A DNA stretch of 64,000 nucleotides from Takakia lepidozioides. Taxonomy: Eukaryota; Plantae; Bryophyta. Shown one piece after another: positions 18,420 to 62,830 of this stretch. Below the pieces are notes generated by a model. It was given only the letters and a program-made list of their open reading frames with translations. It was not told the origin of the DNA and searched no databases. Position numbers and translations under genes: made by a program. The stretch covers positions 61,318,001 through 61,382,000 of the forward strand of contig CM060733.1 of assembly GCA_030704615.1 (NCBI GenBank). The letters run 5' to 3'. Each line of letters opens with the position of its first letter. Position 1 is the first letter of the stretch.

Positions 18420-18639
18420 AATCCACACTACGGCGCCATAGCTAGACGCGGTGAGGCTCAACTCGAGAAAGATGAGCCCAACGCGATCTGCCGTGAAGAT
18501 AACAACGTCAGGTGCCCAAACATGTATTGACCCCTGGATTGACACTTGGGTCAATCCCAAATGTCAATATATAAAAGCTAGCTATTTCCTAGCTAACTTC
18601 ACACCAGTGGTAAAATAACTTGACACCCCCCCCCCCCAA

Positions 18640-31035: not shown

Positions 31036-31410
31036 GTCTCGATAAATTATCCATGGGATATGACAATCTTTAAGGTCTCTTAGAGTCTCAGCACCCTTTT
31101 CTCAAGTCTATCATGGAAAGGGCCTAGTATCAGGTGAGCATAGCGTGAGGAAATCTCACGCCTATAGGGGTAACATGTTTATCATGTATAGGGGTTACTT
31201 GTTTTTTTTTGCTTTTGTCCTTAAGTGTTGCTGTGAGGGCCTATGTGAGCATTAAAAATAGTTTTGCAAATTTTTTGGTTTCTCAATTTTCGTTTTGCTG
31301 AAGAATATTCAGAAGGCATCTTAGGAATATGCGGTATATCCCTGCTTGTGCTCACGTGAGCATGCTCCCTCGCTACCCAACTTAGGTGGGGAAGACCTGA
31401 CATGCACCTG

Positions 31411-32702: not shown

Positions 32703-32865
32703 CACCTGCCATAGAGGAGCCCACGCCGCCTACATCCAACACTACCTCATATGCCTTCGATTTTTACATTGTTCCTAATGTGTTTTTGCATAAAATATAT
32801 TTCTAATCAAAAGGAACATTTCTCTCATAAGTCGATATGAGGAGTGCGGAGCAACGTGTAGCCCT

Positions 32866-37182: not shown

Positions 37183-38148
37183 TGTCGTGCGTATACATAT
37201 CGCTACACAACTACATCGTTGTCCAAAACCACACAACACATGTGCACGCCATACACTAGTATACCACTAGTCCACCACTAGTCCAGCCACTAGTCCAACC
37301 ACTAGGCTACAACTAGTCAGTCACTAGGCTGCCACTATGCTGCCCATTATGGCAGTCACTAGTCCACACAATGATAAAGAAGAAGAATACAATCACAAGC
37401 TCATGCGAGCTCACAAAGCTGAAGCATAAACTCATGCATATATAAACTCATCACTCAAATATAAGTCAAGCCAAGTGCACCCCATGCCATGGGGAATCCA
37501 CACTACGGCGCCATAGCTAGGCGCGGTGAGGCTCAACTCGAGAAAGATGAGCCTCCCCCGTTTGCCGTGAAGATAACCATTCCAGGGCCTAAATCTGCCT
37601 TGACCCCTGGATTGATACTTGGGCCAATCCCAAATGTCAATATGGAAAAGCTAGCTATTTCCTAGCTAGTTTCACACTAGTGGTAAAATAACTTGACAGC
37701 TGTCGTGCGCATACATATCACTACACAACTACATCGCTGTCCAAAACCACACAACACATGTGCATGCCACACACTAGTATACCACTAGTCCACCACTAGT
37801 CCAGCCACTAGTCCAACCACTAGGCTACAACTAGTCAGTCACTAGGCTGCCACTATGCTGCCCACTATGGCAGTCACTAGTCCACACAATCGCCCCCCTA
37901 GCTGGTGCTTAGGTCCCTCTAAGTCCTGGTAGCCACAAGATGTGATAGTGACCATAGCCTCACTATGTCCTCCACCACTGTCTCTACTAAACTCAAACTC
38001 GATAGATCAAGAGGTCGGGTGCAAGAGTTGCCCCATCGTTAGTCGCCGTCTTGCAAACTGTGAACTTGAGCCTATGATCTCGTATATTGACTCCTATGAG
38101 CTTGGCCTCCCATGTCTTGTTAGCTGCCTCTAGTCATGTCCATTGCCA

Positions 38149-41100: not shown

Positions 41101-41215
41101 TGCGTCGTCTTTCTCCTCTGGTGACAATGGGTCCAATGTCAGGCTCCCAATTGTCCTCCGTAACTGCAACCTTAAGTCCAGTGGGCTTAGAAGTAGAGGA
41201 CGAGTCCAATGGTTG
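38149..41215 (-). pseudogene. RT-RNaseH-integrase-PHD, copy 2
   Basis: [30 protein letters not shown]...YEGECLA, TDHQPL, DDE core, CMLCES...CDRC...H.GC...CPHC; several stops and small deletions. Confidence 0.95.
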
Positions 41216-41257
41216 TTATGTTGCAACCTCTTGAGCAGTACTCCCTACCTGCTCAGT

Positions 41258-42880
41258 CTAACTGCTGCAACTGAGCATCCCACAGGAGGCCAGGTCCACT
41301 ATCCCGGAAAGCGTGCGATCATGGGAAGCTGAGTAGTGTAGATAATGCTGCTCGTGGTTGACCACCGCCAAAGGCGAACGGTCATCGTGTCTCATACGCT
41401 GAGACTGCCTCCCTGTGTCCAAAATGCTATCCACTGTGAGGTGTGCTGGCCGCTGCATCCCATCAAATGCACGCTTGAGCAGTGCGGGTGGTATTAAGTT
41501 AGTCCACCATAGCCGTGGACGATGAGCCCGTGACCCCACTGCAGTTACATCTAGCAACACTGCTGACCCAAGCCACGACCGGACTTGATGCACACTAGCC
41601 ATCATCCTGGCCCGAGAATCGCCCATCTGTGGCACATTCTCCAAGATGTATGCTGGAGATACAACTTGATGAAGTTGCAAGTGGCGCAAAACCCGCACCA
41701 TCTCCCAAAATAGACCCGACCTCGAGTCTCGCAATCCATGGCCATGCCCGGCTGATGAATGCCCTTGGCAGGGCCAACCTACCACTACCAGATCAATGGA
41801 GCCAACCCGCTCCAAATCCTGCGCCCCCAGCAACGAAATGTCTGTTGGCAAGGCCTGCTAATATCCACGAACTGCAAACACCGACAACAACTCAGGGTAC
41901 TGCTGCACCAACTGAGCAACATGACGAAGTGAAACGTGTCGTGCAGTCTCATCCCTCTCCACATACAGGTAACGCCAAACTTGCACACGTGTCTGTGACA
42001 CAACAGCCAATCCGGTGCTGATCCCGCCAAACGAGTCCAGAAGACAAACGCCTTCATCCGGATACTGCCACATAATAGGTGTGGTGTCCAATGGAGACAA
42101 CTGAGGTGGTCCTGGTGCAATCCTCGCACTCTCCTCCTCTCCCGATGGTACAAAAGCCTCTATCCAGGCTTGTTGCACCCGTCGATCAGCAACCTGCTGC
42201 AAATCCTTGATCGTGCCCCACAATGGAGTCTGAGCAATCATGGCAGACAACTCCGCCATACCATGCATGTCATCCTGCTCTCCTGGAGGTGACACATCCT
42301 CTGAATGAGCGTTGCCCTCAAGCAACTCTCCAGGCCAACTCACTGCAGCTGTGAATGTTGTTAGTATCGTCATCTTGCCTTGCTGGGCAACCGCAACTCC
42401 TCCTATGAATGTCATAGGGAGCTGCACATGCCGACCCTCCCCTGACTGCCAGCCAGGCCTATAGGAAGTTGACTTCTCCTAAAAATCTAAGGTGAAGCCC
42501 ATGGGGTACAACACTGCCCCACCAACCAGAACATCGTACGAGACCGCGTCTGTCACAATGGCCTTGGCTCGCATCACTGAGCCATTTGTAGGGTGATCCG
42601 GCCGTAGTCTGATAGCCAACTCACGTCGTGTCATGCCCCGAGCCTGCTCTGATGCTCCCAAAGACGTCTGTATCTGGAAAGGACAAGGCTCCATATCCGC
42701 CTCCGTGAGGCCCAAGCCTGCAATAGCAGCTCTGCCTAACATCAATGGCTGAGCCTCCGAGTCCAACAAGACCCGCAGCGGCCGGTACCTCTTGCCTGCC
42801 GGTCCACTCAAACAGAAAATGCCATCCTGGTTGTCTAACATGACAACTCCAAGTGTCACCATGGCGCGTTCAATGGCTGG
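41258..42880 (-). pseudogene. Protease and C5 methyltransferase, copy 2 (C-terminal deletions)
   Basis: VLLDSEA; LLDSFGGISTG, VGWPCQ, YILENV, RAHRPRLWWTNL. Confidence 0.9.
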
Positions 42881-42887
42881 CCTAGCT

Positions 42888-43622
42888 TGTCGCGGCCCTT
42901 TGCCTTGAGGGAAGGGGTCTCGGGACACACGAGGGGCTGCCCCTGTGGTGGGGGCAGCGGCAGCGATAGGTACGGGGGGGGGGGGGGGGCTGAAGCACCC
43001 TTGATTGCCCAAGGCACTCAGGGAAGCGGAGGCGCTCACTAGGTGGAGCCCCGCACACCGGGTTGCGGTGGGGGTGGCTCCACAAGGGGTGGGGGTAGCT
43101 TAGCGGGATTTAGTGGGGGTGGCATAGGACTCACCATGGGGGCGGAGACCTCGTGGTGGGAGTCGTGGGGAGTCTTGGGACTCATCACGGTCCATAGGGG
43201 CCGTGGTGAGTGGGCCAAGACTCACCGCGACTCATCACCGGGAGTCGAGGGCGTTCATGGTGGTTCGCCATAAAATGGCATGGCTGGTTGTGAAACCCCC
43301 GCAGACAGCTACAGAAGTATATATAAGGGGAGTAGTGACCCCGAGAATGGTGCAAGCCCGTTGGTGACCAAAACTAGTGAGTAAGCGAGCGAGCCGGAAA
43401 GCGACCAAAGAGTGGGAGCTGTTCCGGACTGCCATCTACCAAAGGGAATTCTCCTAGTCCCAAATAGGTGGAGGGTTTAGAGGGAAGCGAAGGGGACCGT
43501 TATGTCCCGGTGAGCAGCCGAAGCTCCAAGTTGGCCCGGCGGCCAGGTTGGGAGTCAGGCGCGCGCATCAAAGCGAGTAACTATGACTTGAAGGGGAGCT
43601 TACCGAAGTGAGGTGCGCGACA
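42888..43622 (+). repeat. Chromovirus 5' LTR
   Basis: tgtcgcggccc...gtgcgcgaca; near-identical to 49267-50003. Confidence 0.95.
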
Positions 43623-45986
43623 CTTGGTATCAGAGCTTAGAGTTCAGTACGCGATCGTCCTTAGGATTGGCCTCATCATGGGGTCAGGCAAGCCAAAGCG
43701 AAAGCGGAACGGCCCAAAAGATGATGATCCTGGTGAGCCCGATGGGGCGAAGTGTCACCGAAGCGGCCGTTTGAGGACGCGACGCAGGTTTCTGAAAGCG
43801 AGGCCGCTCAAAAGCGGGAGGAATCCGAGGAGTCGGAGCCCGAGGAATCCGTGAGAGCTTCGACCGACCAACAGATGCCTCCCATGCCGGCAGCCTTTTG
43901 GGAAGGGTTGTTGGCGCAATTTGGCGGGACGTTGAAGACGTGTTGAAGGCGGCTAATGCCACTTCCACTAAGGCAAAGTTTAAGGTGAAGCCTAAGGAAC
44001 CCGGCACCTTTGAGGGCGTCCAAAATCGGAAGGCACTCAACACCTAGCTCCTGGAGCTAGAGCAGTACTTCTCCGGGCGGCCAAGTTGAGTGACGAGGAT
44101 CGGTGGAAGTGGCTCCCACCTATTTGAGGGCTATGCTCAACAATGGTGGCAGAAATGCCTTCACGACCGAGGTCCAAGCCCGGAAACCTTGAACTGGAGT
44201 GGGTTCAAGGAATTGATGAAGAGACAGTTTGTGCCCCTCAACGCGTCCTGGCTTGCCCGGGACAAGATGAGGAATTTGAAGCAAACAGATGACATTCGGA
44301 TGTATGTCCAGGCTTTCAATGTGCTGTTGCTCGAAGTCGCGGACATGGCAGAACCAGAAATGGTCTTCAACTTTGTGGCGGGACTGGCCCCATGGGCCAG
44401 GCGGAAGTTGGAGGAGAAGCCACCCAAGACTTTGAACGAGGCAATTGAGAGGGCTGAATGTTTCTCGGATGTCCCTAGGGGTGAGAGACAAGGCCGTACG
44501 GAGCTGAACCACAAGAAGACCCGGCGGGAAGGTGACTCCTCCCGACCGGAAAAGAAGTGGGATAGGCCACGCGGCGACAATGGCACGTGGAAATCGAAGG
44601 GAGGGCCTTCACCCGTCAAGGCGGCACCCGGTCTTTGAAAGGAAAAGCGGGTGGAGCGGCTTATGGCGGACAGAAGGTGACCTTTGATGGAGTGTGTTTC
44701 AATTGGTGGGAGCCCGGGCACATGGCAAGAAGTGCACAAAACCTCGACAATTGAACATGACTCGGGCAACCACGGAGCTGTCGGAAGATACCATCAGTCG
44801 CTTGGTGGAAGCGGTGGTCGCCAGGACTTGCAAGGTAGGCAACTATTCTTGTGAGTTGTATCAGGAAACTGGCGCCCTGCGTAAAGGGAGTCAGTTATTG
44901 TTCGTGGATGGGATAATATCCGGAACTAACGTGTCGTTGTTGGTGGACATAGGAGCGTCGCACTCCTTCATGACGCCGGCGGCGGCGCGAAAGTTGGGAC
45001 TCTACTCCCGACAAGTGACGTGGGGGCCTCTATTGAGGTGCGTTCTGCCAAGGAGAACCACAGTTTGCAACAAGGTTGGCGTTTGATGTCCCTCTTCAAC
45101 TGGGGAGTTGGGAGGGACGTGAGAACTTCACCATCTGCGAGATCGATGGAGAGGGCGAATAAACCTTCTGTCAGCAAAGGAGTGGGCCGTGGAGGAGGCA
45201 CACGAGCCCCAATTTTTGCTTTACATTAGAGAAGTAAAAGGAGAAGGCGATGGGGAGCCGAGCCCAGATTGGATCAAGGGGATTTTGGAGAAATACCAGG
45301 ATGTGATGTCGGAGGATTTACCAAGCGGCTTGCCACCGCGAAGAGGAGTTGACCACAAGATTGAGGTGATACCGGGATCGAAACCGCCTGCCAAGGCGCC
45401 CTACCGGTTTGAGCCACAGAGAGTTGGTCGAGCTGAAGACTCAGCTCAAGGATCTAATGTCAAAGGGGTACATCAGGCCGAGTAAGTCACCTTACGGAGC
45501 CCCGGTGCTATTTGCAGACAAGAAGGATGGGACGCTGCGGATGTGTGTTGATTACAAGGCTCTGAATAAGGTGACTATAAAAAACCGGTACCCTTTGCCA
45601 AGGATCGACGACCTCTTCGATCAGTTGGCAGGAGCGAAGTATTTCAGCCGGATCGACTTGCGCTCCGGCTATCACCAAATTCGGGTGGCGGAAGGAGATG
45701 AGGAGAAGACCGCGTGCAGGACAAGGTATGGTTCATATGAGTTCTTGGTGATGCCTTTTGGGCTCACCAATGCACCAGCGACATTTAGCACGCTGATGAA
45801 CAACCTTTTCCAGGAGTGGTTGGATGACTTGTGATCGTGTACATCGATGACATCTTGGTGTACTTGAAAACAAAGGAGGAGCACCTGGAGCACCTGAAAA
45901 GGGTGTTCCAAAAATTGCGAGAAGGGAAGCTGTATGCCAAAGCTTCAAAGTGCGAATTTGGGGTCACAAAAGTGGAGTTCCTGGGG

Positions 45987-46382
45987 GGAGAGAGGGAGAG
46001 AGTGGGAGAGATGAGGGAAGAAAAATAAAAAAGAAGGTTGGGGGGGGGGAGTGACTCAGCAGCTGCTGCTGCTCAGTCACTTCCCCCCCTCCACCTTTTC
46101 GTTTTTTGTTTGTGGAATGGTGGGGGGTGCTGAAAGCAGCTTGCTGCTGCTGGTCTTAGCCCCCCCCCCCCCCCCCGACCTTCATTTTTTGGTTTTGGCA
46201 ATGGTGGGGGCCACTGAGAGGGTGCCTGCTGCTACTCTCAGTCCCCCATTTTTATTTTTTTATTTTTTTTGAATGGTGGGGGGCTGACAACAGCAACAAG
46301 TGCTGGTGCTCTCATCACCCCCCCCCCCCCCCCCCCCCCTCTTTTCATTTTTTTGCTATCAGCAGAGAGAGAAAGGGGGAGA
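45987..46382. repeat. Array of G-run/C-run hairpin units inside the chromovirus pol gene
   Basis: Four degenerate units such as gggagtgactcagcagctgctgctgctcagtcacttccc; same motif at 3010-3128. Confidence 0.7.
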
Positions 46383-49266
46383 CCTCCTATTACCGGAAGT
46401 ATGTGAGAAATTTCGCCAAGATTGCGGGGCCGCTGTCAGACCTTCTGGTAAATCAAGCTGGGCATGGAACACCTTTTGGGCCAAGCTTTTGCTGAATTGA
46501 AGGCAGCGGATGACGGAAGCTCCAGTCTTGAAAATCCGGAGTTCGATCGTCCGTTCGAGATTCATACAGATGCGTCGTACTTCGCGATTGGGGGTGTACT
46601 GATGCAAGATGGGACGTCCAGTGGCTTACGAAAGTAAGAAATTGAATGAAGTGGAGCGACGGTGGCCGACGCACGAGAGAGATGAAGGCGGTGGTGCATT
46701 GTCTTGAGCTTTGGCGCCACTATGTTGGTTCCAACCCAGTGAAGGTGTTCACGGACAATGCCACGGTGAAGTATTTTGCCACGCAGACCAAGTTGTCCCC
46801 AAAACAACTTAGGTGGCAAGATACTTTGGCGGTGTTTGACGTGGATATCCAGTACAAACCAGGACGAGACAACGTGGTGGCCGATGCTTTATAGAAACAA
46901 CGGCTCTTGTTGGTGTACAAGGGCGAGACGGCGCTCCAAGGAAGATCCGGAAGGCTTGCCGGAAGGATGAACTGGCAAAGTCCCGCGATCAGGACTTGAG
47001 GATGGGGGGTAAATCGCAATTCCACTTGCAAAATGACTGCTCCGTATAAGCAAAAACGTCTCTATGTGCCGAAGGGAGGGATCAGAGATAGCCTCTTGAA
47101 AGAATGCCATGATAGCCCGCTTGCGGGCCACGGCGGAGCCAAGCGCACTGCGTCACTCTTGAAGAAAGAGTATTTCTGGCCCAAACTGAGGGAGGAGGCC
47201 GAGGAGTAATGTCAAGACAGCACCACAATGCCAACAAAACCGAGCGAGTACAAAAGCAAGCGGGTCTGTTACAACCCTTGCCCTTCCAGAGGGGACTTGA
47301 GAAAGCGTCTCGATGGATTTCATGACTGCTATGCCGCTGTCAAAAGGATTCGATGCAATCATGGTGGTGGTGGATAGGTTCAGTAAAATGCGCCATTTCA
47401 TCCCCACCAAGGAGACGGCAACGGCGCAGGAGACAGGGCGACTTTACTTCACCACCCCCGTCTTAAAACATCATGGAGTCCCGAAGGATATTGTCTTGGA
47501 CCGCGATCCAAAGTTTACGAGTAAATTTTGGGGGCACTTTGGAAGAAGATGGGGACGAGCTGAAGATGAGCCCGCCTCCGACTACCCCCGATTGGCCAAA
47601 CAGAAAGGGTGAATTCCGTAGTGAAGCAGATCTTGCGAATTACGTGTCGGCAGACCAAACAGACTGGTGGAACACTTAGACGCGGCAGAGTTCTGTTATA
47701 ATAACACAGAACACTCCGCAAACGGAGTTTCCCCTTTCGTATTGGTCTATGGAAAAGCACCTCTGGTGCCGACAAGTTGGGCCGCCCAGGACGTTGAGGA
47801 ACCGGCAGTAGCGGGGTAACTGGAAGAACGCGAGCGTTTGTTGAAGCTCGCAAGTACAATATTGCCAAAGCTAGGAAACGGTATGAAAGGCAGGCGAATC
47901 AGAAGCGGAGGGAAGTGAAGTTTTGGGCAGGCACAGAGTCTGGTTGAACATCAAGAATTTTCCGACTACCTCCGGAAGTGAGTCCGAATTCGTACCTCCG
48001 TATGCGGGACCCTTTCGCATTCGGAAGGTTATGAATGAGGATGTGTATGAATGGAGCTGCCGGCAAACAGCAAGGTGCACCCAGTATTCCATGTCTCCCT
48101 TTTGAAGCCTTACTTCAAAGATGAAGCGCGTCCGAATCGGCATCAAGTGTGCGTCCGCCACCTATGCTGTTGGATCATGAAAATGAACCTGAGTACGAGG
48201 TGGAGGCAATACTTAAGTCGAGAGAGGTTCAGGAACCGGAAAAACGGAGTATCTCGTCAAATGGAAGGGTTATCATCATGTGGAGGCATCTTGGGTGCGT
48301 GCCTCAGAATGGGAAACGCATCAGGCGGTTGCAGCTTTCGAAGGCGACCTCAAAAGCGGAAGAAGCGTTGATGGGGACATCACCTTGGAGCGTGGGGGAG
48401 GAAATGCATGCTTAGCCCGGCTTAGCTAGCTTAGGAATCCGATTACAAAACTTGTATTGTACAAAAATTTGTTATAAAGGAAATGGGTTCCAATGTTGTG
48501 CGTCCTATTTTGTTTGGAATGGTGATGCATGATATGGTTGGCTAGTGTGTAGAATGCATGCTATCTTAAAAGTGGGAGAGGTAAATTGGGTTAATCATGT
48601 GTTTGCGTAGTGCCGAAATCGGGTGACCCCCATCCAAGGGGCAAGGAAACTTGCGACTTCTTGGGAGTTCACGTGCTAGTGCGCACCTGGCGCGTGCGCG
48701 TACTATAACTGCGCTACCGAGGGGGTTGCCTTGTAGTGCAGGCTAACGCGGAAGCTACGTGCTTCCGTTCACATACTATAATCGTGTAGCCTCGGGACGA
48801 AGTCGTAGTGCGGCTTCGGCGTGTTCCCGTACCTCAGGCCAGCATTCCAAGGCGGACCCAATTGTGTGATTGGGCGCACGGTTGGTTCAAGGTTATCTTC
48901 CTAGTCAAGAGGGTTCCAGGGAACCCTTGCTCAAGGTGATGCCAAAGCGGCATCATGAGCGATCGCAAGCAATGTTGTTGCAGTAAGGCGATTCGATCCT
49001 CGGGGAGGATCGTTCCTTGGCCTTGAAGTAGGCCAAGAAGAGTGCACTGGGAGGAGCTGGAGAGGCTCCACCCTTGGCCGGGACTTGGAGGAAGTCGGCC
49101 GAACTAGCTAGTGGAGAGTAGAGTCAAGTGTGGGGTTTGGTTCTTTGCCATGGGACGCCATGGTACGGAAACAAACTCCTTGATGTGGGACGCCACAACT
49201 TGATGTTCGTTTCTACAAAATGGACAAGTCGATGAGGACATCGACTCCCTGTTGGTAGGGGTGGTG

Positions 49267-50003
49267 TGTCGCGGCCCTTTGCCTTGAGGGCAGGGGGGTC
49301 AGGACACACGAGGGGCTGCCCCTGTGGTGGGGGCAGCGGCAGCAATATGTATGGGGGGGGGGGGGGGGGCTGAAGCACCCTTGAGTGCCCAAGCACTCAG
49401 GGAAGCGGAGGCGCTCACTAGGTGGAGCCCCGCACACCGGGTTGCGGTGGGGGTGGCTCCACAAGGGGTGGGGGTAGCTTAGCGGGATTTAGTGGGGGTG
49501 GCATAGGACTCACCATGGGGGCGGAGACCTCGTGTGGGAGTCGTGGGAGTCTTGGGACTCATCACGGTCCATAGGGGCCGTGGTGAGTGGGCCAAGACTC
49601 ACCGCGACTCATCACCGGGAGTCGAGGGTGTTCGTGGTGGTTCGCCATAAAATGGCATGGCTGGTTGTGAAACCCCCGCGGACAGCTACAGAAGTATATA
49701 TAAGGGGAGTAGTGACCCCGAGAACGGTGCAAGCCCGTTGGTGATCAAAAACTAGTGAGTAAGCGAGCGAGCCAGAAAGCGACCAAAGAGTGGGGAGCTG
49801 TTCCGGACTGCCATCTACCAAAGGGAATTCTCCTAGTCCCAAATAGGTGGAGGGTTTAGAGGGAGGCGAAGGGGGACCATTATGTCCCGGTGAGCAGCCG
49901 AAGCTCCAAGTTGGCCCGGGCGGCCAGGTTGGGAGTCAGGCGCGCGCATCAACGCGAGTAACTATGACTTGAAGGGGAGCTTACCGAAGTGAGGTGCGCG
50001 ACA
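49267..50003 (+). repeat. Chromovirus 3' LTR
   Basis: Direct repeat of 42888-43622, followed by TSD TAGCT. Confidence 0.95.
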
Positions 50004-50099
50004 TAGCTGGCAGCTCCATCAACCTGGTAGCTGTAGCTTGTCATGGTGCCACCGTGGCAGTCTTGACCATCAAATCTTACGATCCCTCCGGCACTACAC

Positions 50100-50425
50100 T
50101 GTCAAGTTATTTTACCACTAGTGTGAAACTAGCTAGGAAATAGCTAGCTTTTACATATTGACATTTGGGATTGGCCCAAGTGTCAATCCAGGGGTCAAGG
50201 CAGATTTAGGCCCTGGAGTGGTTATCTTCACGGCAAGCGCGGGAGGCTCATCTTTCTCGAGTTGAGCCTCACCGCGCCTAGCTATGGCGCCGTAGTGTGG
50301 ATTCCCCATGGCGTGGGGTGCACTTGGCTTGACTTGTATTTGAGTGATGAGGTTATATATGCATGAGTTTATGCTTCAGCTTTGTGAGCTCGCATGAGCT
50401 TGTGCTTGTATTCTTCTTCTTTATC
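50100..50425 (+). repeat. Repeat A1 of copy 3
   Basis: Matches 60349-60671 apart from 2 substitutions and 3 one-base homopolymer indels (by eye). Confidence 0.95.
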
Positions 50426-50442
50426 ACTCGAGAAAGATGAGC
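50426..50442 (+). promoter_or_regulatory. Putative self-priming primer-binding site
   Basis: ACTCGAGAAAGATGAGC is the exact reverse complement of 50246-50262 inside A; there is no TGG-type tRNA PBS here. Confidence 0.7.
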
Positions 50443-51949
50443 TCGTATCTATGAGTGCTAGATACGAGTTAGTTGTAGCACTTGTGGTTTTTGCTTGAGA
50501 ATGAGAGAAACCAAGTTGTTATGCAAGGAGCACCGTGGAGCTCTTGGTTGTTAGAAGCGGAGGCGATGTGGGTTACGAGGTGGTAAACCTTGGCATTCGA
50601 TCTTCAGCTTCAGAGATGAAAGCACCATACTGTAGGTAATTCCAGAGCACCTTGATGGTTTCAGATTGTGTACATGCATGAGCAAGCACGATTGGGAAGA
50701 GGACCAGTCAAGAGCAGGTTATATGTGGCTTTGGTGGCAAAGCTGAGAACTGGACTTGGGAATGCGAGCTGTCATTTGTGAAGGATTGCAAGACCAAGCG
50801 AAAGGGCTGATTTGGCTTGGGGCAAATCAGTGCACTTTGTGGAGTATGGTGAGATTGGGTTTCAATCTCGAGCTTCAGCATTGAGAGGGCTCTTGTCATG
50901 GCGAGAGCAGGGCTGGAACAGGAGCTAAGAGGTGCGGCAAGGCCATGGAATGTGCACCTAGGGTTACAGAGCTTGGAAAGAGCTCTTGCACCACAAGAGA
51001 AGTGTCTTATGGCTGGAAATGTAAGCCTTAGGGTTTCAGGAGCTTGGCAAAGGCTATGGAGTGCTTAGTCTTGTCTTAGAGAGCATCAAGGAGCCAAGGA
51101 GCCAAGATAGGGGCTGATATCTCTTGTGTGAAGAGGTTGCATGTGTGGAGCATGTATTCAGCTCATTGAAGCTTCCATCTTCAAGCTTGGAGGGCAAGCA
51201 AGGAAGAGGGAAGGGCTGACTTCCCTTATGTGAGGGCAATGCATGTGTGGAGCATGCTATCAGCCTGGTGAAGGCTTGCACTTTCAGGTGTGGGAGTGCA
51301 AGAAAGGAAGGAAGGGGCTGTTTCCCCTGTAGGGCATGTGGAGCATGCTTTCAGCATGCTGAAGCTTGTATTTTCAGGTTTGTGGGTGCAAGAAATGAGC
51401 AAAGGAGCTGATTCTTTTATGGTGAGAGTGGGGCATGTGTGGAGCATGCCTTCAGCCCATTGAGGCTCTTGTTTTCAAGCTTTAGAGAGCTAGAACGGAA
51501 GGTCTAGGGCTGGTTTCCACTTGGAGTGAAAGAAAAAGCACTTGTAGGGCCTATGTGAGTTGGGGTTTCAACTTCAAGCTTGAAGGGAGCGCAACTCTTG
51601 AAGCAGCAGGTGTAGGGGGCTGGAAGAGGCTCTAAGACAGATGCTATGGCCAAGGAGAGTGCTTGAATGAGTGCTCACAAGGGCTGGGAACCAGCAGGGC
51701 TTGGTTTTTTGCCATTGAGTTTAGTGGCGTGTTTGGGTAGGCTAAGTGGAAAGAAGGCTTGGTTTGTGGCACCACCTCATGGCTTAGGGCTACTATGGTG
51801 GTGTGGGGAGCCGAAAGAGCAAGGATACCTTGCTGATTTCCTCACAGCCACCATAGCTCGGTGGAAAGAAGCCTAGAGTCCAAGAGACACAACCCTAGCT
51901 TGGCGTGGCTAAACCCCTTGGAGAAATGGCTAAACTGCCAGAGCGGCCA

Positions 51950-52335
51950 TGTGTGGGCTGTGTCAGGCTGTGGCGAGCTGTGACGGGCTGTGACGGGCTG
52001 TGGCAAGCTGTGACAAGGCTGTGATGGCTGTGACAAGGCTGTGCCATGTGCCCTGTGGGGCTGTGACGGGCTGTGCAGGCTTGTGACAGGCTGTGCCCAG
52101 TGGCCTTTTGGGGGCTGTGACGGGCTGTGCGTGGCTGTGACAGGCTGTGCCCTGAGGCCTGTGGGGCTGTGCGGGCTGTGACAAAGGCTGTGCCCTGGCC
52201 TTTGGTGGCGCTGTGACAGGCCGTGCCTGAGGCCTTTGAGGCTGTGACGAGCTGTGAGGGGCTGTGACAGGCTGTGCCCAGTGGCCTGTGGGACGTGACG
52301 GCTGTGCCAGTGAGCTTTGGTGGGCCTGTGCCTGG
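51950..52335. repeat. About 10-bp gctgtgacgg minisatellite in the 5' leader of copy 3
   Basis: Tandem ggctgtgac units; counterpart in copy 2 at about 63610-63757. Confidence 0.85.
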
Positions 52336-52691
52336 TCTGTGGTGGCCCGTGTTGACCTTGGAGGCCTGTGCTGACTCGTGGAGGCACTGGTGGACTAAGA
52401 CTTGGCATGTGGTCTGGAAGGCCAAATTTTGAAGCTCGTGGATGGCGGTTTGAGGAGTATCTTCAATGAATTCCATGGTCATGCAAATTCAAGGTGTAGG
52501 CTATGTTAGGAACTTAGTATTCCAAACCATAAGCCGCAACAGGTTCTCTACTACCCCTACCTTGTTACCTTGTGGAGAGGGGGTTAGGGACATGTTCATG
52601 ACCGGTTGAGTGTCAACACGGAGGTGCCACTAGTTGCTGGGGACAGTGCCGGTTCGAGCACTAGCGATACTAGTGGGTACACGAGACGGGT

Positions 52692-55300
52692 GTGCGGTTT
52701 AGGCCACCTTCACCTCCTGTGTCTTCCACGGAAGGTTCTGATTCGGATTGTGAATCAGGAGGGCTCATACCGGCGGTGCAAGTTTATTTCTTTGCCATTA
52801 TTGTGGGACACAACGGAGGAGATGTATGGAGCTACCAAGGGGCCACGAAGGTACTCTGGGCGGTGGGCACCATTGAGTTGGATGTTTTATCCAAGAGTTT
52901 GATAGTTGGTGTGATTTGCAGCAAATGCGCAATCCACAACTATTTACGCCGTTCATGGCATGGAAAGGGCTGTTTCAGCACCTTGAGGGCCGCCTATGGA
53001 TGATTACCATGAGATCAGCAGGCGGGGGCATGAGGTTGAGATCGAGGAGTGGAGGATGTACTGGTCACCCGACTATGTCTCCATCACTAGGGGCACTAGA
53101 GCCACGAGGGCAGTGGCTACACCTGCCGCTGCACCGGCAGCTTCAGCAAGCAGCAGTGGGACTGGTGGTACAGTAGCTACGACGTCCACCCAAGCCACTA
53201 CCGCACCAGCACTAGCACCCGTGCCTGCCTTCAACCCTGTTGTGGAGTTCTTCGAAGAGTTGAGAGGGAACTACCAAGGGGTGAGGACAGAGAAGTTGCG
53301 GAGCTTGCAAGAGTTCCAACGGAAGCCGACCGAGAGCTTGAGGGAGGCTTTCACTCGCATGAGGCGCTTGATAAATGTAACCCAAGGGGTTACGGAAGCT
53401 CAGGCAGTCCAATTCTGGTATGGGATATTGGACAAGGAGCTGAGGAGAAGGGTGCGGGATGCAACTCTCCTACAAGCGGCCCAACCCACCTTAGCAAATG
53501 TGTTTTTGCTGGCAGAGCGGATAGAGCTCAACATGGTGGAGGAACGAGTGGTCATGGTGGGATTTGCTAAGGAGACACCACGGGGTAGTGGTGCTCCTAG
53601 CCAACCACTACCTCAACGTGCTCAAGGCAACAAGGGGGCTCAGGTGAAGCTCAGGGAAGGGCAGAGAGGACCTCAGATGCAGGGGTCTCTCCCTTCATTT
53701 GCTGGCCAAACAACGGGCGGATGTGGTGTGCTGGACATGTGGAGGACCCCATGTCAAGAAGGATTGCCCAGAGGGAGGCAAAGGGCCGGCACATGCACAG
53801 CCTGCACAGTTGCAGTGTGGGCATTGTGGCAAGCACGGGCATGGAGAGGCCCAGTGTTATGGTTGCATCCTGAGTTGCGCCCAGGCCAGTTCCAAGGGAA
53901 CAATGGTGGCCGGGGCGAGGTGGAGCAGCCCAGAGAGGACGAGGTGGCCAGCCACGAGGTGCAGGCCAAGGGCAAGCTCAACGTGGCCAAGGACGCGGGT
54001 CAGGGTGTTGACCAAGGCATGGCCAACCGGCTCAGCAGCTAGAGCAGAGGCTCGCTGCCATGGCTACAGCTCAGGTGGTACCGGCTCTAAGGCCGGATGG
54101 TCCACCTCCTGCTCCTGAGGGAGGAGATATGGGAGGCATGGGATTCATGTGTGGAGCAGCACTACCACTAGTGCAGGTGGAGTCTGCTGCAGCCGTGACT
54201 CGAGGAGCAGCACGAGTTCCTGAGCCACGAGGTGCAGAGGTGGAGTTGGATCCACAGCGTGGGGAGGCAAGCCGTCAGGCTAGGCTTCCTCAGTCATTCA
54301 CATTGGCGGAGACAGTGTCGACGCCATCCATGGCACCTAGTTCTCGCCCGACTGTTACCGAGGCGGAGGTTACTATGCCATTGGGGAGAGCTACACGGGT
54401 AGCACCACTACCTAGTGTTGCCAAGGCTACGGCAGCTAGTGTGCTGCTAGGAGCGGCCACATCTGTGTGCCAGGCTCCATTGTTCTCGGCTACCATGATT
54501 GCGACGCCGGGGGTAAGACCAGCTGAGGTGTTCAGGCTGGCAGCTACACTCTGTGAGAGTGGGGAGGTTACTTCATCTTCTGCGGAGATAGTGGGAGGTG
54601 TAGTGCCGGAGGGATCCTCGGATTTGAGGGTCAAGACTGCCACGGCGGCGCCATGGCAAGCTGCAGCTGCCAGGTTGATGGAGCTGCCAGCTAGGCCAGC
54701 CATTGAGCGCGCCATGGTGACACCTGGAGTTGTCATGTTAGACAACCAGGATGGCATTTTCTGTTTGAGTGGACCGGCAGGCAAGAGGTACCGGCCCTGC
54801 GAGTCTTGTTGGACTCGGGAGCTCAGCCACTGATGCTGGGCAGAGCTGCTATTGCAGGCTTGGGCCTCACGGAGGCGGATATGGAGCCTTGTCCTTTCCA
54901 GATACAGACGTCTCTGGGAGGATCGGAGCAGGCTCGGGGCATGACACGGCATGAGTTGGCTATCAGACTACGGCCGGATCACCCTACAGATGGCTCAGTG
55001 ATGCGAGCCAAGGCCATTGTGACAGACGCAGTCTCATACGATGTCCTGGTTGGTGGGGCAGTGTTGTACCCCATGGGCTTCACCCTGGATTTTTGGGAGG
55101 AGTCAGCTTCCTATAGGCCTGCATGGCAGTCAGGGGAGGGCCGGCGTGTGCAGCTCCCTGTGACGTTCATAGGAGGAGTTGCGGTTGCCCAGCGAGGCAA
55201 GATGCCGACACTAGCAGCATTCACAGCGGCAGTGAGTTGGCCTAGAGAGTTGCTTGAGGGCAATGCTCATTCAGAGGATACCACCCTCCGGGAGAGCAGG
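52692..55300 (+). pseudogene. Gag and aspartic protease, copy 3 (frameshifted as given)
   Basis: QRKPTESLREAFTRM, CWTCGGPHVKKDC and CGHCGKHGHGEAQC knuckles, LDSGAQPLMLG, YDVLVGG. Confidence 0.88.
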
Positions 55301-55529
55301 ATGACATGTATGGTATGGCGGAGTTGCCTACCATGGTTGCTCAGACTCCATTGTGGGGCACGAGCAAGGATTTGCAGCGGGATGCTGATCGACGGGTGCA
55401 ACAAGCCTGGGTGGAGGCTTTTGTACCGTCAGGAGAGGAGGAGAGTGTGGGATTGCACCAGGACCACCTCAATTGTCTCCATTGGACACCACACCTATTG
55501 TGTGGCAGTATCCGGATGAAGGCATTTGT

Positions 55530-56773
55530 CTTCTGGACTTGTTTGGCGGGATCAGCACCGGATTGGCTGCTGTGTTACAGGCAGGTGTACGAGTTCGGCG
55601 TTACCTGTATGTGGAGAGGATGAGACTGCACGACGCGTTTCACTTCGCCATGTTGCTCAGTTGGTGCAGCGGTACCCTGAGTTGTTGTCGGTGTCTGCAA
55701 TTCGTGGATATCAGCAGGCCTTGCCAGCAGACATTTCGTTGCTGGGGGGGCAGGATTTGGAGCGGGTTGGCTCCATTGATCTGGTAGTGGCAGGTTGGCC
55801 CTGCCAAGGGCATTCATCAGCCGGGCATGGCAATGGATTGCGAGACTCGAGGTCGGGTCTGTTTTGGGAGATGGTGCGGGTTTTGCGCCACTTGCAGCTT
55901 CATCAAGCTGTATCTCCAGCATACATCTTGGAGAATGTGCCACTGATGGGCGATTCTCGGGCCAGGGTGATGGCCAGTGTGCATCAAGTCCGGTCGTGGC
56001 TTGGGTCAGCAGTGTTGCTAGATGCAGCTACAGTGGGGTCACGGGCTCATCGTCCACGGCTATGGTGGACTAACATGATGCCACCCGCACTGCTCAAGCG
56101 TGCATTTGATGGGGTGCAGCGGCCAGCACATCTCACAGTGGATAACATTCTGGACACAGGGAGGCAGTCTCAACGTGTGAGACACGATGACCGTTCGCCT
56201 TTGGCAGTGGTCAACAAGGTGGGTCAACCACGAGCAGCATTACCTACACTGCTCAGCTTCCCAGGATCGCATGCTTTCCGGGATAGTGGACCTGGCCTCC
56301 TGTGGGATGCTCAGTTGCAGCAGTTAGTGGAGCCTAATGCTGACGAGCGTGAGCGGGCAATGGGTTTTACCACTGGTACCACGGCGGTGTCGTCTCTTCT
56401 CTTCTGAGGCATCACGTCGTCAAGTGTTGGGGCAAGCAATGGATCTCAATTGCTTGACCTGGATTATCAGCTTGGCTCTGCTGAGCAACGCAGAGTGCGG
56501 AGTACACTTCCCTCAATGGTCTCTCTGCCTACCGAGACGGTACAGGCAGTGAGTGGGGGCGAGCATATGAGGACCACGGGGTGCATGCATCCATGGCACA
56601 CGTGGGAGGTGCTCGAGGTTCAGAGGGAGTTGGCAGCCAAGGCGGCTGTGATGGATGAGGTTGGGGATTCTTCTCGAGTTGAGGAGGTCCTCAAGGATGA
56701 GATGATGGGGCAGGATGAGGCCTTGTCATTGACTGAGCAGGTAGGGAGTACTGCTCAAGAGGTTGCAGCATAG
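55530..56773 (+). CDS. DNMT3-like C5 cytosine methyltransferase domain of the polyprotein, copy 3
   Basis: LLDLFGGISTG (55530), DLVVAGWPCQ (PCQ 55799), ENV (55931), LDAATVGSRAHRPRLWWTNM, ERERAMGF, RRQVLGQAM; one-base frameshifts near 55620 and 56400. Confidence 0.9.
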
Positions 56774-59700
56774 CAACCACGGGACGCGTCCTCTACCTCT
56801 AAGCCCACTGGACTTAAGGTTGTAGTTACGGAGGACAATTGGGAGCCTGACATTGGACCCATTGTCACCGGAGGAGAGAGAGACGTATACGGCGGTTCCT
56901 GAGGGCTTACAGGAATTGCTTTGCCTTCAGTTTGAAGGACTTGGGAGCACTGAAGGGTCAAGAGATCCGTATTGAGTTGGCCACTGACACGCCAATCTTT
57001 CGGAGACCCTATAGATACAGTGACATGGAGAGGTCTTTGATTCAGATGAGGACTCAAGATCTCTGGGAGGCAGGTTTGGTGGAGCTCTCTGGTGGAGAGT
57101 ATGCTTCAGCCACAGTGATGCCAGCCAAGAAGGATGTCTATGGCAATTGGACGGAGAGACGTATGTGCGGTGATTACCGGCCTGTAAATCGTCAGACCAA
57201 GTCCGATAAGTATGCCATGCCAACACCAGAGGAGATCTTTGATGCCATCGGGCATGCTAAGGCCTTTAGCACTTTGGATTTACGATCCGGATATCACCAG
57301 TTGCCAATCAAGGAGGCGGACAAGCAGAAGACGGCATTCTGGGGATCAATGAGCACGGCAAGGATTGCCTATATCAGTGGCGGTTCTTACCATTTGGGCT
57401 TAAGAATGCTCCTGCAGAGTTTCAGAGAGTCATGGATAGGATTCTAGCAGGGGTGGACTTTGCTCGGTGCTACATAGATGACATCATCATCTTTAGTGTT
57501 ACGATGGAGGAGCATGAGAGACACCTTCAGGTGGTATTGGAGCGCTTGAGAGCGCACGGATTGAAGTTGCATCCGGGGAAGTGCAAGTTTTTCCACAACC
57601 AGATTGAGTATCTGGGTCACATGATATATCCTGGAGGATTGGGGGTACAGCAGACTAAGGTAGAGGCCATTGCACAAATTCCACGCCCCACGGATGTGAG
57701 CCGAGTTCGAGCTTTCATGGGGTTGGCAAACTATTATAGACGGTTTGTCAAGGGATTTAGTACCATTGCAAAGGCTCTAACCAAGCTGACCAAGGTGGAC
57801 CAGGAGTGGCAGTGGGAAGATGAGCAGGAACGAGCTTTTCAAGAGCTCAAGGCGAGGTTGACCTCGGCGCCTATCTTGAGACGACCTATCAGGGGGCGTC
57901 CCTTTCAGCTGCATACGGATTGGAGCATGCTGGGGCTTGGAGCGGTGCTCACACAGGTGGATGATGAGGGAAGAGAGTTCGTAGTGGCTTACGCTAGCCG
58001 CTCGAACAACGCTGCAGAGGCTAAGTACAGCTCATATGAGGGAGAGTGCTTAGCTGCAGTGTGGGCCGTGGCACACTTCAGGTGCTATCTATACGGCAAT
58101 CTTTTCACCCTTGTCACGGATCACCAGCCACTCAAGTGGTTGATGGAGTCAGACAAGCTTACGGGGAAGCTTGCACGGTGGGCACTTATACTCCAGGAGT
58201 ATGACTTTCAGGTTGTGCATCGACCGGGTTTGGTCAATCGGGATGCGGATGGATTGAGTCGCAATCCATGCATGAGCCAGCAGGATGACACTGGAGCTCG
58301 GTGGCATGGTGAGACGGACGAGGAGATGGTGCCGGGATGGCACGCATCTGCATTTTTGTGTATCTTGGCATCGGGAGGTCAGATTGGACCTACAACAGGG
58401 ATGACTGTAGACGGAGTGTCTGAGGACCCTGAGGCTAGTGATGAGCTAGGTGGTGCCAGAGATACATGAGGATTCGGCTGTGTTGGACTACCTCCGCACG
58501 GGAGACACGGCAGCCATTGTGACTGCCAGGGAGAGGGATCGGATCCTGCAACGAGCCAAGAGGTTCAAGTGGGAGGGGATACACCTACTTCGAGTGTGGG
58601 AGGATGGTCGGGTGAGGATTGTGCCTCACCCCACACAGCGTGCACGGTTAGTGCGGCATGCCCATGAGGAGTTGGGGCATTTTGGAGTGCGACGCACTCA
58701 CAGTTTACTGCAGGGGCAGTATTGGTGGCGTGGTATGCATACAGAGGTGCAACAGTTTGTGGCTAGGTGCATGGTGTGTGACAGGGTGCGTGCTTCATTC
58801 AACGCCCTACACCACAGTTGCATCCTTTACCATCATGGGATTGGGCTACAGGTGGAGTCTTGACTTCGCAGGACCGTTGCCACTGACTATGCGCCACCAC
58901 AGATATGTGTTGGTGATGGTGGAGCACTTCTCCAAGTGGATTGAGTTGGTTCCATTGCCTGACAAGGCTAGTGAGGGGCTGCGTATGCATTCTTGGATCG
59001 TGTGCTTAGCCGATTTGGTGCTCCAGCTGAGGTACTCACGGACCAAGGAGAGAGTTCTTGGGGGAGTTTCAGGCTTTGTGTGATAAAGCCTTGATAGACC
59101 ACCGCACCACTTCTCGGGATCATCCTGAGGCCGATGGCTTAGCAGAGAGAGTTGTTCAGACGGTGAAGAGGGGTTTGCGCAAGTATGGCTTGCAGAAGGG
59201 ACACCTAGGAGATTGGGATCTTCAGGTTCCTTGGTTAGCCATGGGCTACAGGTTCAGCAAACAAGCATCACTTGCCTCCTTCTCACCATATTTCCTTCTC
59301 TTTGGCCGAGAGCCGGATTTGCCTGCAGCCATTCGTAGGGACACTGCTCAAGTCCTTAACCTTGACGATCCGGACGTGTGGGTACGTGCATGTGATCAGC
59401 GTGCAGAGTTGTTCAAGAAGTCATGCCCATGGCTTTTGAGAACCTTGCCATTGCACAGCACCGTGATACGTTGAGGTATGCCACTATACGTGGTGGAGGA
59501 TATCGTCCTGGGGTTCGGAGGTTTAGCCCTGGTGACTATGTTTATTTGCAGCAGACTGCTCCTACGACTCTGGATGTTACTGCAGGGCGTGTTATTCTGA
59601 GGGTTCGAGAGGTGTTGCCCTCAGGGGTCCTGATCTTAGAGGGTCGGGATGGCATGACTTGGAAGGACCATGTGCGTAATTGTGCGCCATGTCACCTTCC

Positions 59701-59898
59701 CAATGTCGATGGCAGAGTTGACCCAAACTTGGCAGTGGTACCTGCAGGTTTGAGGTGCATGCTCTGTGGGTCTGCCAAAGGGCAGCCACCATGCTGGTGT
59801 GTGATCGATGCTCAAGGGGTTGGCATATGGGATGCTTGACACCACCTCTTGAGAAGGTTCCTGACGGAGATTGGTTGTGTCCACACTGCTTGGGATAG
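56774..59898 (+). pseudogene. RT-RNaseH-integrase-PHD, copy 3 (frameshifted as given)
   Basis: [48 protein letters not shown] core, PHD 59756-59889, stop 59896-59898. Confidence 0.95.
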
Positions 59899-60156
59899 TG
59901 GCAGTGGACATGACTGGAGGCAGCTAACAAGACATGGGAGGCCAAGCTCATAGGAGTCAATACATGAGATCCCAAGCTCAAGTTCACAGGTTGCAAGACG
60001 GCGACTAACGATGGGGCAACTCTTGCACCCGGCCTCTTGATCTATCGAGTTTGAGTGTAGTAGGGATAGTGGTGGAGGACTTAGTGAGGCTATGGTCACT
60101 ATCACATCTTGTGGCTACCTGGACTTAGAGGGACCTAAGCACCAGCTAGGGGGGCG

Positions 60157-60861
60157 ATTGTGTGGACTAGTGACTGCCATAGTGGGCAGCGTAGTGGCAG
60201 CCTAGTGACTGACTAGTTGTAGCCTAGTGGTTGGACTAGTGGCTGGACTAGTGGTAGACTAGTGGTATACTAGTGTGTGGTGTGCACATGTGTTGTGTGG
60301 TTTTGGACAGCGATGTAGTTGTGTAGCGATATGTATGCGCACGACAGCTGTCAAGTTATTTTACCACTAGTGTGAAACTAGCTAGGAAATAGCTAGCTTT
60401 TACATATTGACATTTGGATTGGCCCAAGTGTCAATCCAGGGATCAAGGCAGATTTAGGCCCTGGAGTGGTTATCTTCACGGCAAGCGCGGGAGGCTCATC
60501 TTTCTCGAGTTGAGCCTCACCGCGCCTAGCTATGGCGCCGTAGTGTGGATTCCCATGGCGTGGGTGCACTTGGCTTGACTTGTATTTGAGTGATGAGGTT
60601 ATATATGCATGAGTTTATGCTTCAGCTTTGTGAGCTCGCATGAGCTCGTGCTTGTATTCTTCTTCTTTATCATTGTGTGGACTAGTGACTGCCATAGTGG
60701 GCAGCGTAGTGGCAGCCTAGTGACTGACTAGTTGTAGCCTAGTGGTTGGACTAATGGCTGGACTAGTGGTAGACTAGTGGTATACTAGTGTGTGGTGTGC
60801 ACATGTGTTGTGTGGTTTTGGACAGCGATGTAGTTGTGTAGCGATATGTATGCGCACGACA
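60157..60861 (+). repeat. 3' split-repeat block B1-GC-A2-B2 of copy 3
   Basis: B1 and B2 are 190 bp each with one substitution seen; junctions gaca-gc-tgtc (60343-60352) and tttatc|attgtg (60666-60677). Confidence 0.95.
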
Positions 60862-62830
60862 ACACCTCCCACTATCTCCGCAGAAGATGAAGTAACCTCC
60901 CCACTCTCACAGAGTGTAGCTGCGAGCCTGAACACCTCAGCTGGTCTTACCCCCGGTGTCACAATCATGGTAGCCATGAACAATCGAGCCTGGCACACAG
61001 ATGTGGCCGCTCCCAGCAGCACACTAGCTGCCGTAGCCTTGGTAACACTTGGTAGTGGTGCTGCCCGTGTAGCTCTCCCCAATGGCATAGTAACCTCCGC
61101 CTCGGTAACAGTCGGGCGAGAACTAGGTGCCATGGATGGAGTTGACTCTGTCTCCGCCAATGTGAATGACTGAGGAAGCCTAGCCTGACGGCTTGCCTCC
61201 CCACGCTGTGGATCCAACTCCACCTCTGCACCTCGTGGCTTAGGAACTCGTGCTGCTCCTCGAGTCACGGCTGCAGCAGACTCCACCTGCACTAGTGGTA
61301 GTGCTGCTCCCTCATGAATCCCATGCCTCCCATATCTCCTCCCTCAGGAGCATGAGGTGGACCATCCGGCCTTGGGACCGGTACCACCTGAGCTGTAGCC
61401 ATGGCAGCGAGCCTCTGCTCTAGCTGCTGAAGCCGGTTGGCCATGCCTTGGTCAATACCCTGACCTCCGCGTCCTTGACCATGTTGAGCTTGCCCTTGGC
61501 CTGCACCTTGTGCCTGGTCACCTTGTCCTCTCTGGGCTACTCCACCTCGCCTCTGGCCAGCATTGTTCCCTTGGAACTGGCCTGGGCGCAACTCAGGATG
61601 CAAACCATAACACTGGGCCTCTCCATGCCCGTGCTTGCTACAATGCCCATACTGCAACTATGCAGGCTGTGCATGTGCCGGCCCTTTGCCTCCCTCTGAG
61701 CAATCCTTCTTGACATGGGGTCCTCCACATGTCCAACACGCCACCTCCACCCGTTGTTGGCCTGCAAATGAAGGGAGAGACCCCTGCATCTGAGGTCGTC
61801 TCTGTCATTCCCTGAGCTTCACTTGAGCCCCCTTGTTGCCTTGAGCACGTTGAGGTAGTGGTTGGCTAGGAGCACCACTACCCCGTGGTGTCTCCTTAGC
61901 AAATCCCACCATGACCACTCGTTCTTCCACCATGTTGAGCTCTATCCGCTCTGCCAGCAAAAACACATTTGTTAAGGTGGGTTGGGCCGCTTGTAAGAGA
62001 GTTGCATTCCGCACCCTTCTCCTCAGCTCCTTGTCCAATATCCCATACCAGAATTGGACTGCCTGAGCCTCTGTAACCCCTTGGGTTACATTAATCAAGC
62101 GTCTCATGCGAGTGAAAGCCTCCCTCAAGCTCTCAGTAGGCTTCCGTTGGAACTCTTGCAAGCTTCGCAACTTCTCTGTCCTCACCCCTTGGTAGTTCTC
62201 TCTCAACTCTTCGAAGAACTCCACAACAGGGTTGAAGGCAGGCACGGGTACTGGTGCTGGTGCGGTAGTGGCTTGGGTGGACATCGTAGCTACGGTACCA
62301 CCAGTCCCACTAGTCCTACTGTTGCTTGCTGAAGCTGCCGGTGCAGCGGCAGATATAGCCACTGCCCTCGTGGCTCTAGTGCCCCTAGTGATGGAGACAT
62401 AGTCGGGTGACCAGTATATCCTCCACTCCTCGATCTCAACCTCATGCCCCCGCCTGAACTCATGGTAATCATCCATAGGCGGCCCCTCAAGGTGCTGAAA
62501 CAACCCCTTCCATGTCATGAAATGCGTAAATAGTTGTGGATTGCGCATTTGCTGCAAATCACACCAACATCAAACTCTTGGACAAAATCATCCATCTCGA
62601 TGGTGCCCACCGCCCCAGAGTACCTTTGTGGCCCCTTGGTAGCTCCATACATCTCCTCCATTGTGTCCCACAACAATGGCAAAGAAACAACTTGCACCGC
62701 CGGTGTGAGTCATCCTGATTCACAATCCGAATCAGAACCTTCCGTAGAAGACACAGGAGGTGAAGGTGGCCTAAACCGCACACCTCGTCTTGTGTACCCA
62801 CTAGTATCGCTAGTGCTTGAACCGGCACTA
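60862..62830 (-). pseudogene. Gag region of copy 2
   Basis: ORFs 61805..62557, 61292..61657 and 60774..61292 are colinear with gag of copies 1 and 3. Confidence 0.9.

Follow-up and report, generated by a model that had tools for sequence, protein, structure and literature searches.

A DNMT3-like methyltransferase domain ahead of an in-frame stop in a Ty3/Gypsy element of the moss Takakia lepidozioides

Element copies, termini and insertion in the Takakia window

The window analyzed here, a 64,000-nt stretch of the Takakia lepidozioides genome, harbors three copies of one Ty3/Gypsy element, and six-frame translation recovers the motifs of a DNA methyltransferase (DNMT) three times. The element encodes Gag, protease and DNMT, then an in-frame stop, followed by reverse transcriptase (RT), RNase H, integrase and a PHD finger. 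Copy 3 (50100-60861, + strand) is inserted into copy 2 and features TG...CA ends and the layout A1-internal-B1-A2-B2, in which A and B are repeats. Its Gag region (52987-54150, +), frameshifted here, carries a zinc knuckle at 53816 and matches PF03732 below the curated cut-off (E 0.0027). An aspartic protease (54780-55140, +) is recognized by its motif, LLDSGA at 54809; PF13650 and PF13975 match the protease weakly in an uninterrupted relative, locus L018. The DNMT3-like C5 cytosine methyltransferase domain (55512-56495, +) has motifs I-X in canonical order and three frameshifts as assembled, and ORF1 ends at an in-frame TAG followed by CAACCA (56771-56779, +), a candidate readthrough signal. 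Downstream lie RT and RNase H (56851-58300, +; PF00078, PF17917, PF17919) and a DDE integrase with Pfam matches to H2C2 and rve (58630-59890, +). The integrase C-terminus is a PHD finger, located at 59740-59890 (+) and, in copy 2, at 38152-38310 (-), where it was scored (E 4.1e-10); chromoviruses carry a chromodomain at that place.

The other two copies are on the minus strand. Copy 1 (3129-18625) belongs to another subfamily, is flanked by the target duplication GGGG and has most of its RT deleted; its repeat A1 is interrupted at 12731-18402 by another element, which has short inverted ends and contains tandem repeats. Its protease and DNMT (DNMT at 7270-6290) share one frame, which closes at the stop at 6013-6011. 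Copy 2 comprises a 3' part at 37183-42887 and a 5' part at 63757-60862 plus 50099-50004, with a truncated DNMT (42061-41258) and a TAA stop at 41218-41216. An unrelated Gypsy element with ordinary 740-bp LTRs (42888-50003; LTRs 96.6% alike) is also inserted in copy 2, about 100 bp from the copy 3 insertion. Elsewhere, the window contains an intronless HD-ZIP class IV gene (25481-27910, +) in one uninterrupted 809-codon frame, and an AT-rich cluster of short inverted and palindromic repeats (31409-32704). The HD-ZIP protein shares 84% identity with its match in Physcomitrium, 83% in Ceratodon and 81% in Marchantia; among the listed matches named as flowering plants, identity is 60-66%, apart from one partial fused model at 53%. 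These values by themselves point to a bryophyte host, most likely a moss.

The element is assigned to Ty3/Gypsy by its Gag-protease-RT-RNase H-integrase order, DDE integrase, TG...CA ends, short target duplication, primer-binding site and polypurine tract. No tyrosine recombinase family, the mark of DIRS, PAT and Ngaro elements, occurs among the Pfam matches; rve and H2C2 are present instead. Two complete identical terminal LTRs are absent from its ends, which read A...B-A-B. Copy 3 is flanked by a 4-bp target-site duplication, ACAC (50096-50099, repeated at 60862-60865), and copies 1 and 3 show the unoccupied site in their homologous stretch. Duplications of the same length are GGGG in copy 1 and AAGG in L015 (1678-10805), a locus with the same A...B-A-B layout as copy 3. 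Repeat A1 (50100-50426, +) is the same as A2 (60349-60672), and B1 (60159-60346, +) is the same as B2 (60673-60861). The two A repeats differ by 2 substitutions in 324 aligned bases and the two B repeats by 1 in 188; because its own repeats have so few substitutions between them (3 in 512), copy 3 is young.

The primer-binding site lies directly after A1 (50427-50442, +) and lacks a tRNA-type TGG start. Its exact 16-nt complement, a candidate self-primer, lies in A at the RNA 5' end (50246-50261, +). This pair covaries, with a different 16-nt pair in L015 and a third in L018, which indicates putative self-priming of the Tf1 type. Primer-binding sites complementary to a 5' repeat stretch are described for Tf1/sushi-group Tj1 and plant Tcn1, and Tj1 also has an in-frame stop before Pol (PMC4600332, PMC6317226). 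Unlike the Takakia element, however, those elements have ordinary LTRs and a stop after Gag rather than after Gag-protease-DNMT, and Tcn1 bears a chromodomain rather than a PHD finger (PMC4600332, PMC6317226). In the available text of a plant survey of Tf1/sushi-group elements, searches for "methyltransferase" and for "PHD" give zero matches.

The polypurine tract (60148-60157, +), conserved in L015, L013, L004 and L009, lies directly before B1. Standard LTR reverse transcription from such a primer-binding site and polypurine tract would yield linear BA-internal-BA DNA. At the B1/A2 junction (60343-60352) is the palindrome GACA-GC-TGTC, in which the tail of the element meets its head across 2 extra bases; it occurs in all three window copies and in L015 and L021, and L018 has it with one base changed. 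If the ends of BA-internal-BA DNA were joined and the B|A palindrome then cut with a 2-base stagger, the product would be exactly A-internal-B-A-B; the layout therefore suggests insertion by the DDE integrase from a two-LTR circle that is opened within the repeat. At two further loci (L013:6945-7057 and L009:11624-11737), a B repeat has no A after it; these may be one-LTR-circle insertions or truncations.

The methyltransferase domain, its relatives and its selection

In copy 3 (+), the motifs are LDLFGGISTG at 55533, GWPCQ at 55793, ENV at 55931, AHRPRLWW at 56045, ERAMGF at 56351 and LGQA at 56427. The initial annotation had located them correctly, had noted that the protease ORF of copy 1 runs into motif I (one ORF, 7148-8491, holds both) and had described the motif order as canonical. 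The order is borne out, but the copies carry lesions. Copy 3 is spread over several frames, with motif I, motifs IV-IX and motif X split by frameshifts near 55618 and 56398 and a further one near 56480. In copy 1 a single frame runs from the protease through the end of ORF1, interrupted by nonsense codons at 7150 and 6940, and motif VIII reads AHRPWLWW, losing the second Arg. In copy 2, for which the initial annotation had noted motifs up to AHRPRLWW, motifs IX-X are gone by a deletion near 41258, motif I reads LDSFGG, and stops fall at 42481 and 41860. No window copy encodes an intact enzyme as assembled.

The breaks in copy 3 may be read errors. This copy has 18 single-base losses relative to its sister copies, its own A repeats differ by more gaps than substitutions (3 versus 2), and contigs of a second sample show the longer form of the copy 3 gap sites. 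Against read error, short exact pieces with the shorter form occur in runs X1 and X2, none of them bridging by a 31-letter rule.

The PF00145 search proposed with the initial annotation returns E 2.9e-13 for the copy 3 ORF at 55520-56404 (50.4 bits, cut-off 22) and E 7.8e-13 for the copy 2 ORF, and the likeness to DNMT3 claimed there is borne out in several ways. With a single sequence, DNMT3A, DNMT3B and DNMT3C rank first in a search of solved structures. A family profile of 21 sequences scores DNMT3A at 86.5 bits, an unnamed "DNA methyltransferase" entry at 51.3, DRM2 at 38.9, M.HhaI at 37.5 and DNMT2 at 28. The domain of L001 (3255-4250), about 70% identical to that of the window and unbroken in this stretch, has a predicted fold with pLDDT 93.7, and all Foldseek rows listed for this model are DNMT3 (DNMT3A/B/C), the best being 6f57_D (E 1e-19, TM 0.72/0.83). 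Among 76 homologues, the catalytic Cys is conserved in 70 of 73 aligned sequences, the Glu of ENV in 71 of 71 and the Arg residues of motif VIII in 66 and 67 of 70. By sequence and model, the domain is classified as DNMT3-like, with unrearranged motif order, and DNMT3 is nearer to it than are DRM, DNMT2 and the bacterial enzymes. An unrearranged DNMT3-type catalytic domain is likewise found in host plant DNMT3 (PpDNMT3a/b; PMC6453930); these are host genes with a C-terminal DUF3444, whereas the element domain lies inside a Gag-protease polyprotein. DUF3444 has no Pfam match in the window ORFs, L018, L001 or the Marchantia protein P0004. A bacterial contaminant is rejected as the source of the domain, and a domesticated host gene as its identity.

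Relatives occur in bryophytes and algae. A homology search with 7998 candidates scored gives 76 matches, including 17 from Marchantia polymorpha, two each from Calypogeia fissa, Sphagnum and Closterium, and one each from Chromochloris (by model id) and Monoraphidium. No sequence named for a vascular plant is found among these 76 or among 70 profile-search matches, and none named for Klebsormidium was returned by the homology searches. Two homology searches with DNMT queries gave no host DNMT3 sequence, and none is recognizable in the profile search. A metagenome scan adds 48 loci, 32 of which are of this element. The position of the domain is variable: across 218 proteins, DNMT follows RNase H or precedes integrase in 121, follows protease or precedes RT in 62, and is unassigned in 35. 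Most of the 62 (45) end just past DNMT. A fused DNMT-RT ORF is present in Closterium and in more distant relatives such as P0232 and P0404.

A DNMT tree of 76 rows draws on 41 proteins with DNMT before RT, 24 of the 136 with DNMT after RNase H, copy 1 of the window (its stops written as X), four loci and seven outgroups; as the outgroups are bacterial-type and two other long-branch sequences, the tree cannot place the capture. Together with sequences from Marchantia, Calypogeia and the Sphagnum-like group, the window copy makes up a clade of 10 (SH-aLRT 100). This clade is nested in a clade of 27 (95), nearly all of whose proteins end after DNMT. The after-RNase-H group, including named chlorophytes, is a separate clade (95), and an RT tree returns the same groups. 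In this large sister clade (P0049, P0067, P0377, P0410 and more than 100 others), a related DNMT sits between RNase H and integrase; at least once, then, the domain moved within the polyprotein. Two of the loci used as outgroups (L041:8180-9300 and L045:9700-10700) have long ORFs with a divergent DNMT3-like domain and then an RNase H-like tail, and are possibly DIRS-type.

A dN/dS comparison across copies, also proposed with the initial annotation, finds no neutral decay of the domain across the family. Between copies 1 and 3, 320 DNMT codons show 32.5 synonymous and 23.5 nonsynonymous differences (dN/dS 0.23; binomial p about 9e-7, from a separate count); the ratios of neighboring regions are 0.22 for the protease, 0.37 for the linker and 0.50 for the tail. 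Among L018, L019 and L021, DNMT gives 0.10-0.12 and RT 0.03-0.05. Between families, synonymous sites are saturated and about 20% of nonsynonymous sites differ. These low ratios between lineages, and saturation set against modest nonsynonymous change, argue for purifying selection on the domain while the element replicated. A captured host gene fragment, carried along as a passenger without function, would fit the broken state of all three window copies and the dN/dS of 0.85 between copies 2 and 3, which are of one subfamily (p 0.44). The latter value and the 0.30-0.73 of pairs inside a Sphagnum-like family are the decay expected after insertion, while the ratios of 0.10-0.23 between lineages, and the persistence of the domain in algae, liverworts and mosses despite saturation at synonymous sites, contradict a passenger; we consider it extremely improbable and reject it.

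A Gypsy-borne Dnmt3 has been described in an alga, and the initial annotation was right to name charophytes and dinoflagellates as precedent (PMC5890265). KnitGypsy-Dnmt3 of Klebsormidium nitens is reported to hold Dnmt3 in a Pol ORF with RT and RNase H, with Ka/Ks below 0.2 and DIRS-like repeats (PMC5890265). The Takakia element resembles it in its Gypsy domains, its intronless and unrearranged Dnmt3-like domain, purifying selection and A1...B A2 B repeats, but differs in that DNMT ends ORF1 before an in-frame stop and in that the host is a land plant. Retroelements with their own DNA methyltransferase also include SymbioDIRS-Dnmt3 and SymbioLINE-Dnmt (PMC5890265), EpiLTRs and DAM-LTRs (bioRxiv 10.64898/2026.05.21.726589). 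Those are described with tyrosine-recombinase or LINE backbones or with pol-terminal DNMT4-related domains, whereas the moss element has a DDE integrase and 4-bp duplications. For land-plant descriptions of a DNMT-bearing Gypsy element, a literature search with most subscription papers outside its scope yields the 2018 alga paper and later mentions. Later papers say "streptophyte" and name no land plants in their available text, and the figures or supplements of two may include them (PMC12344493, bioRxiv 2026.05.21.726589, PMC11244446); the available parts of two Marchantia methylation preprints and one moss DNMT3 paper make no mention of such an element. What appears to be new, then, is the land-plant range, an ORF1-encoded DNMT followed by a probable readthrough stop, putative self-priming and a possible circle route.

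The in-frame stop between methyltransferase and reverse transcriptase

The initial annotation placed DNMT between protease and RT, which is its location, and left unmentioned the conserved in-frame stop that separates it from RT. This stop lies about 95 codons past DNMT in the window (56771-56773 in copy 3, 6011-6013 in copy 1, 41216-41218 in copy 2) and is followed by CAACCA. All three window copies and all 26 junction-spanning loci (29 of 29 in total) have an in-frame TAG or TAA followed by CAR-YY, a count that leaves out L008, L009, L011, L023, L030 and L031, where the junction is not spanned, and 16 unrelated loci. The stop is TAG in 21 junctions and TAA in 8; the next six bases are CAACCA in 4, CAGTTA in 2, CAATCA in 2 and CAACCC in 21. 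As the 21 CAACCC junctions are near-copies from one Sphagnum-like family, the independent sequence groups number four, with DNMTs about 50-70% identical. Full CARYYA is present in 8 of the 29 junctions (3 of the 4 groups, the window included). As background, CARYY follows 6 of 1345 TAA/TAG triplets on the + strand of the window.

CAR YYA after UAG is the readthrough consensus of TMV, for which the short product is reported to be about tenfold more abundant (PMC2754532), and in the self-priming Tj1 the gag/pol stop is required for transposition (PMC4600332). Based on these sequence features, the conserved stop resembles a TMV-type readthrough context and is likely leaky. The uninterrupted locus L018 illustrates the arrangement, with 1369 codons (protease, DNMT), TAG CAG TTA and 1047 codons (RT, RNase H, integrase, PHD finger); the first Met of its second frame is codon 117. 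In the CAACCC family, an ATG lies two codons past the stop, and re-initiation instead of readthrough is a live possibility there. A comparison of three sequences, without a shuffle control, gave no obvious shared RNA fold downstream of the stop, and the literature search found no paper joining readthrough, CARYYA and a retrotransposon. Because DNMT ends ORF1 before the stop, it would be made at the level of Gag, in excess over RT and integrase.

Possible roles of an element-borne methyltransferase

We propose, with confidence that we put at about even, that DNMT is packaged at capsid-level copy number by means of the leaky stop and methylates new cDNA before integration; readthrough, packaging, release, self-priming and circle integration are steps that we infer. 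ORF1 would supply Gag, protease and DNMT, and RT-RNase H-integrase-PHD would be made by occasional readthrough of UAG-CAR-YY. DNMT would be packed with Gag, be freed by the protease and methylate the cDNA or circle prior to integration. The purpose may be that long-lived extrachromosomal DNA arrives methylated and so resembles host DNA. That DNMT ends ORF1, ahead of a stop that is probably read through, favors methylation of packaged cDNA over marking of the insertion site. Also in favor, isolated SymbioDIRS-Dnmt3 domains produced de novo CG methylation in yeast (PMC5890265). Against this proposal stand the yeast assay of the Klebsormidium Gypsy domain, without methylation but called inconclusive by its authors, and the different plans of other relatives, in which DNMT is fused to RT or follows RNase H; a Gag-level amount is thus not required everywhere.

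Alternatively, the enzyme could travel with the integration complex and methylate the insertion and its flanks after nuclear entry, with the PHD finger picking the chromatin. In that case, the PHD finger would stand in for the ADD domain found in animal DNMT3. The integrase does end in a PHD finger, whose best solved-structure matches include the fingers of CHD4, PHF12, KMT2C/D, KDM5A/B and PHF21A; several of these read unmodified H3K4. The nesting of copy 3 in copy 2 would also fit, but a single nested insertion is no test of targeting, and in this group DNMT ends ORF1 and is tied to integrase only in a rare readthrough product. We regard such marking of the insertion site as unlikely.

The same ORF1 position, with the large amounts that it implies, would also suit abundant free Gag-protease-DNMT, or released DNMT, acting in trans on genomic copies or on the host, either as a self-limiting brake or as an influence on the methylome. 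The family is very abundant, with about 85,000 contig pieces per run holding window DNA, a depth rather than a copy number, and the 2018 paper of de Mendoza et al. brings up a slowing-down role (PMC5890265). A brake in trans, however, is hard to maintain by selection on an individual element, and the Klebsormidium methylome is described as ordinary and plant-like (PMC5890265); action in trans seems still less likely to us. The domain may also be kept for a noncatalytic job, such as DNA binding or a decoy for host silencing factors, or for RNA modification. The negative yeast assay of the Klebsormidium domain would fit, and RNA methylation has been suggested for LINE-borne DNMTs (PMC5890265). 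With the catalytic Cys, Glu and both Arg residues almost invariant, and DNMT2 at a far lower profile score than DNMT3A, we find a noncatalytic or RNA-directed role very doubtful.

Observed/expected CpG is 0.52 in the element, 0.78 in the unrelated Gypsy element nearby and 0.62 in the host gene, and C-to-T/G-to-A rates between copies 2 and 3 are 0.105 at CG, 0.096 at CHG and 0.045 at CHH. Both patterns fit host methylation of inserted copies and are uninformative on the element's own enzyme; present data do not separate methylation before integration from later methylation by the host. We offer the fuller scheme only tentatively: a self-primed element packs DNMT3 at capsid stoichiometry and methylates its two-LTR circle, and the integrase opens the palindrome, such that copies land methylated and may add to de novo methylation of the host.

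Why a transposon would carry a transposon-silencing enzyme has been a question since 2018, and the sole Gypsy case comes from an alga, with a domain that failed in yeast. Marchantia polymorpha, a genetic model for which methylation mutants exist, has relatives with the full motif set among its annotated hypothetical proteins, which brings the question within reach of tests in a land plant. Because it implies an enzyme made like a capsid protein, the conserved stop directs attention to the particle and the cDNA, and the family offers a case of a DDE integrase apparently inserting from a circle. DNMT domains of the element can also inflate DNMT counts in bryophyte annotations. Finally, if the fuller scheme is true, the element's enzyme could add to de novo methylation by the host in mosses and liverworts with many copies.
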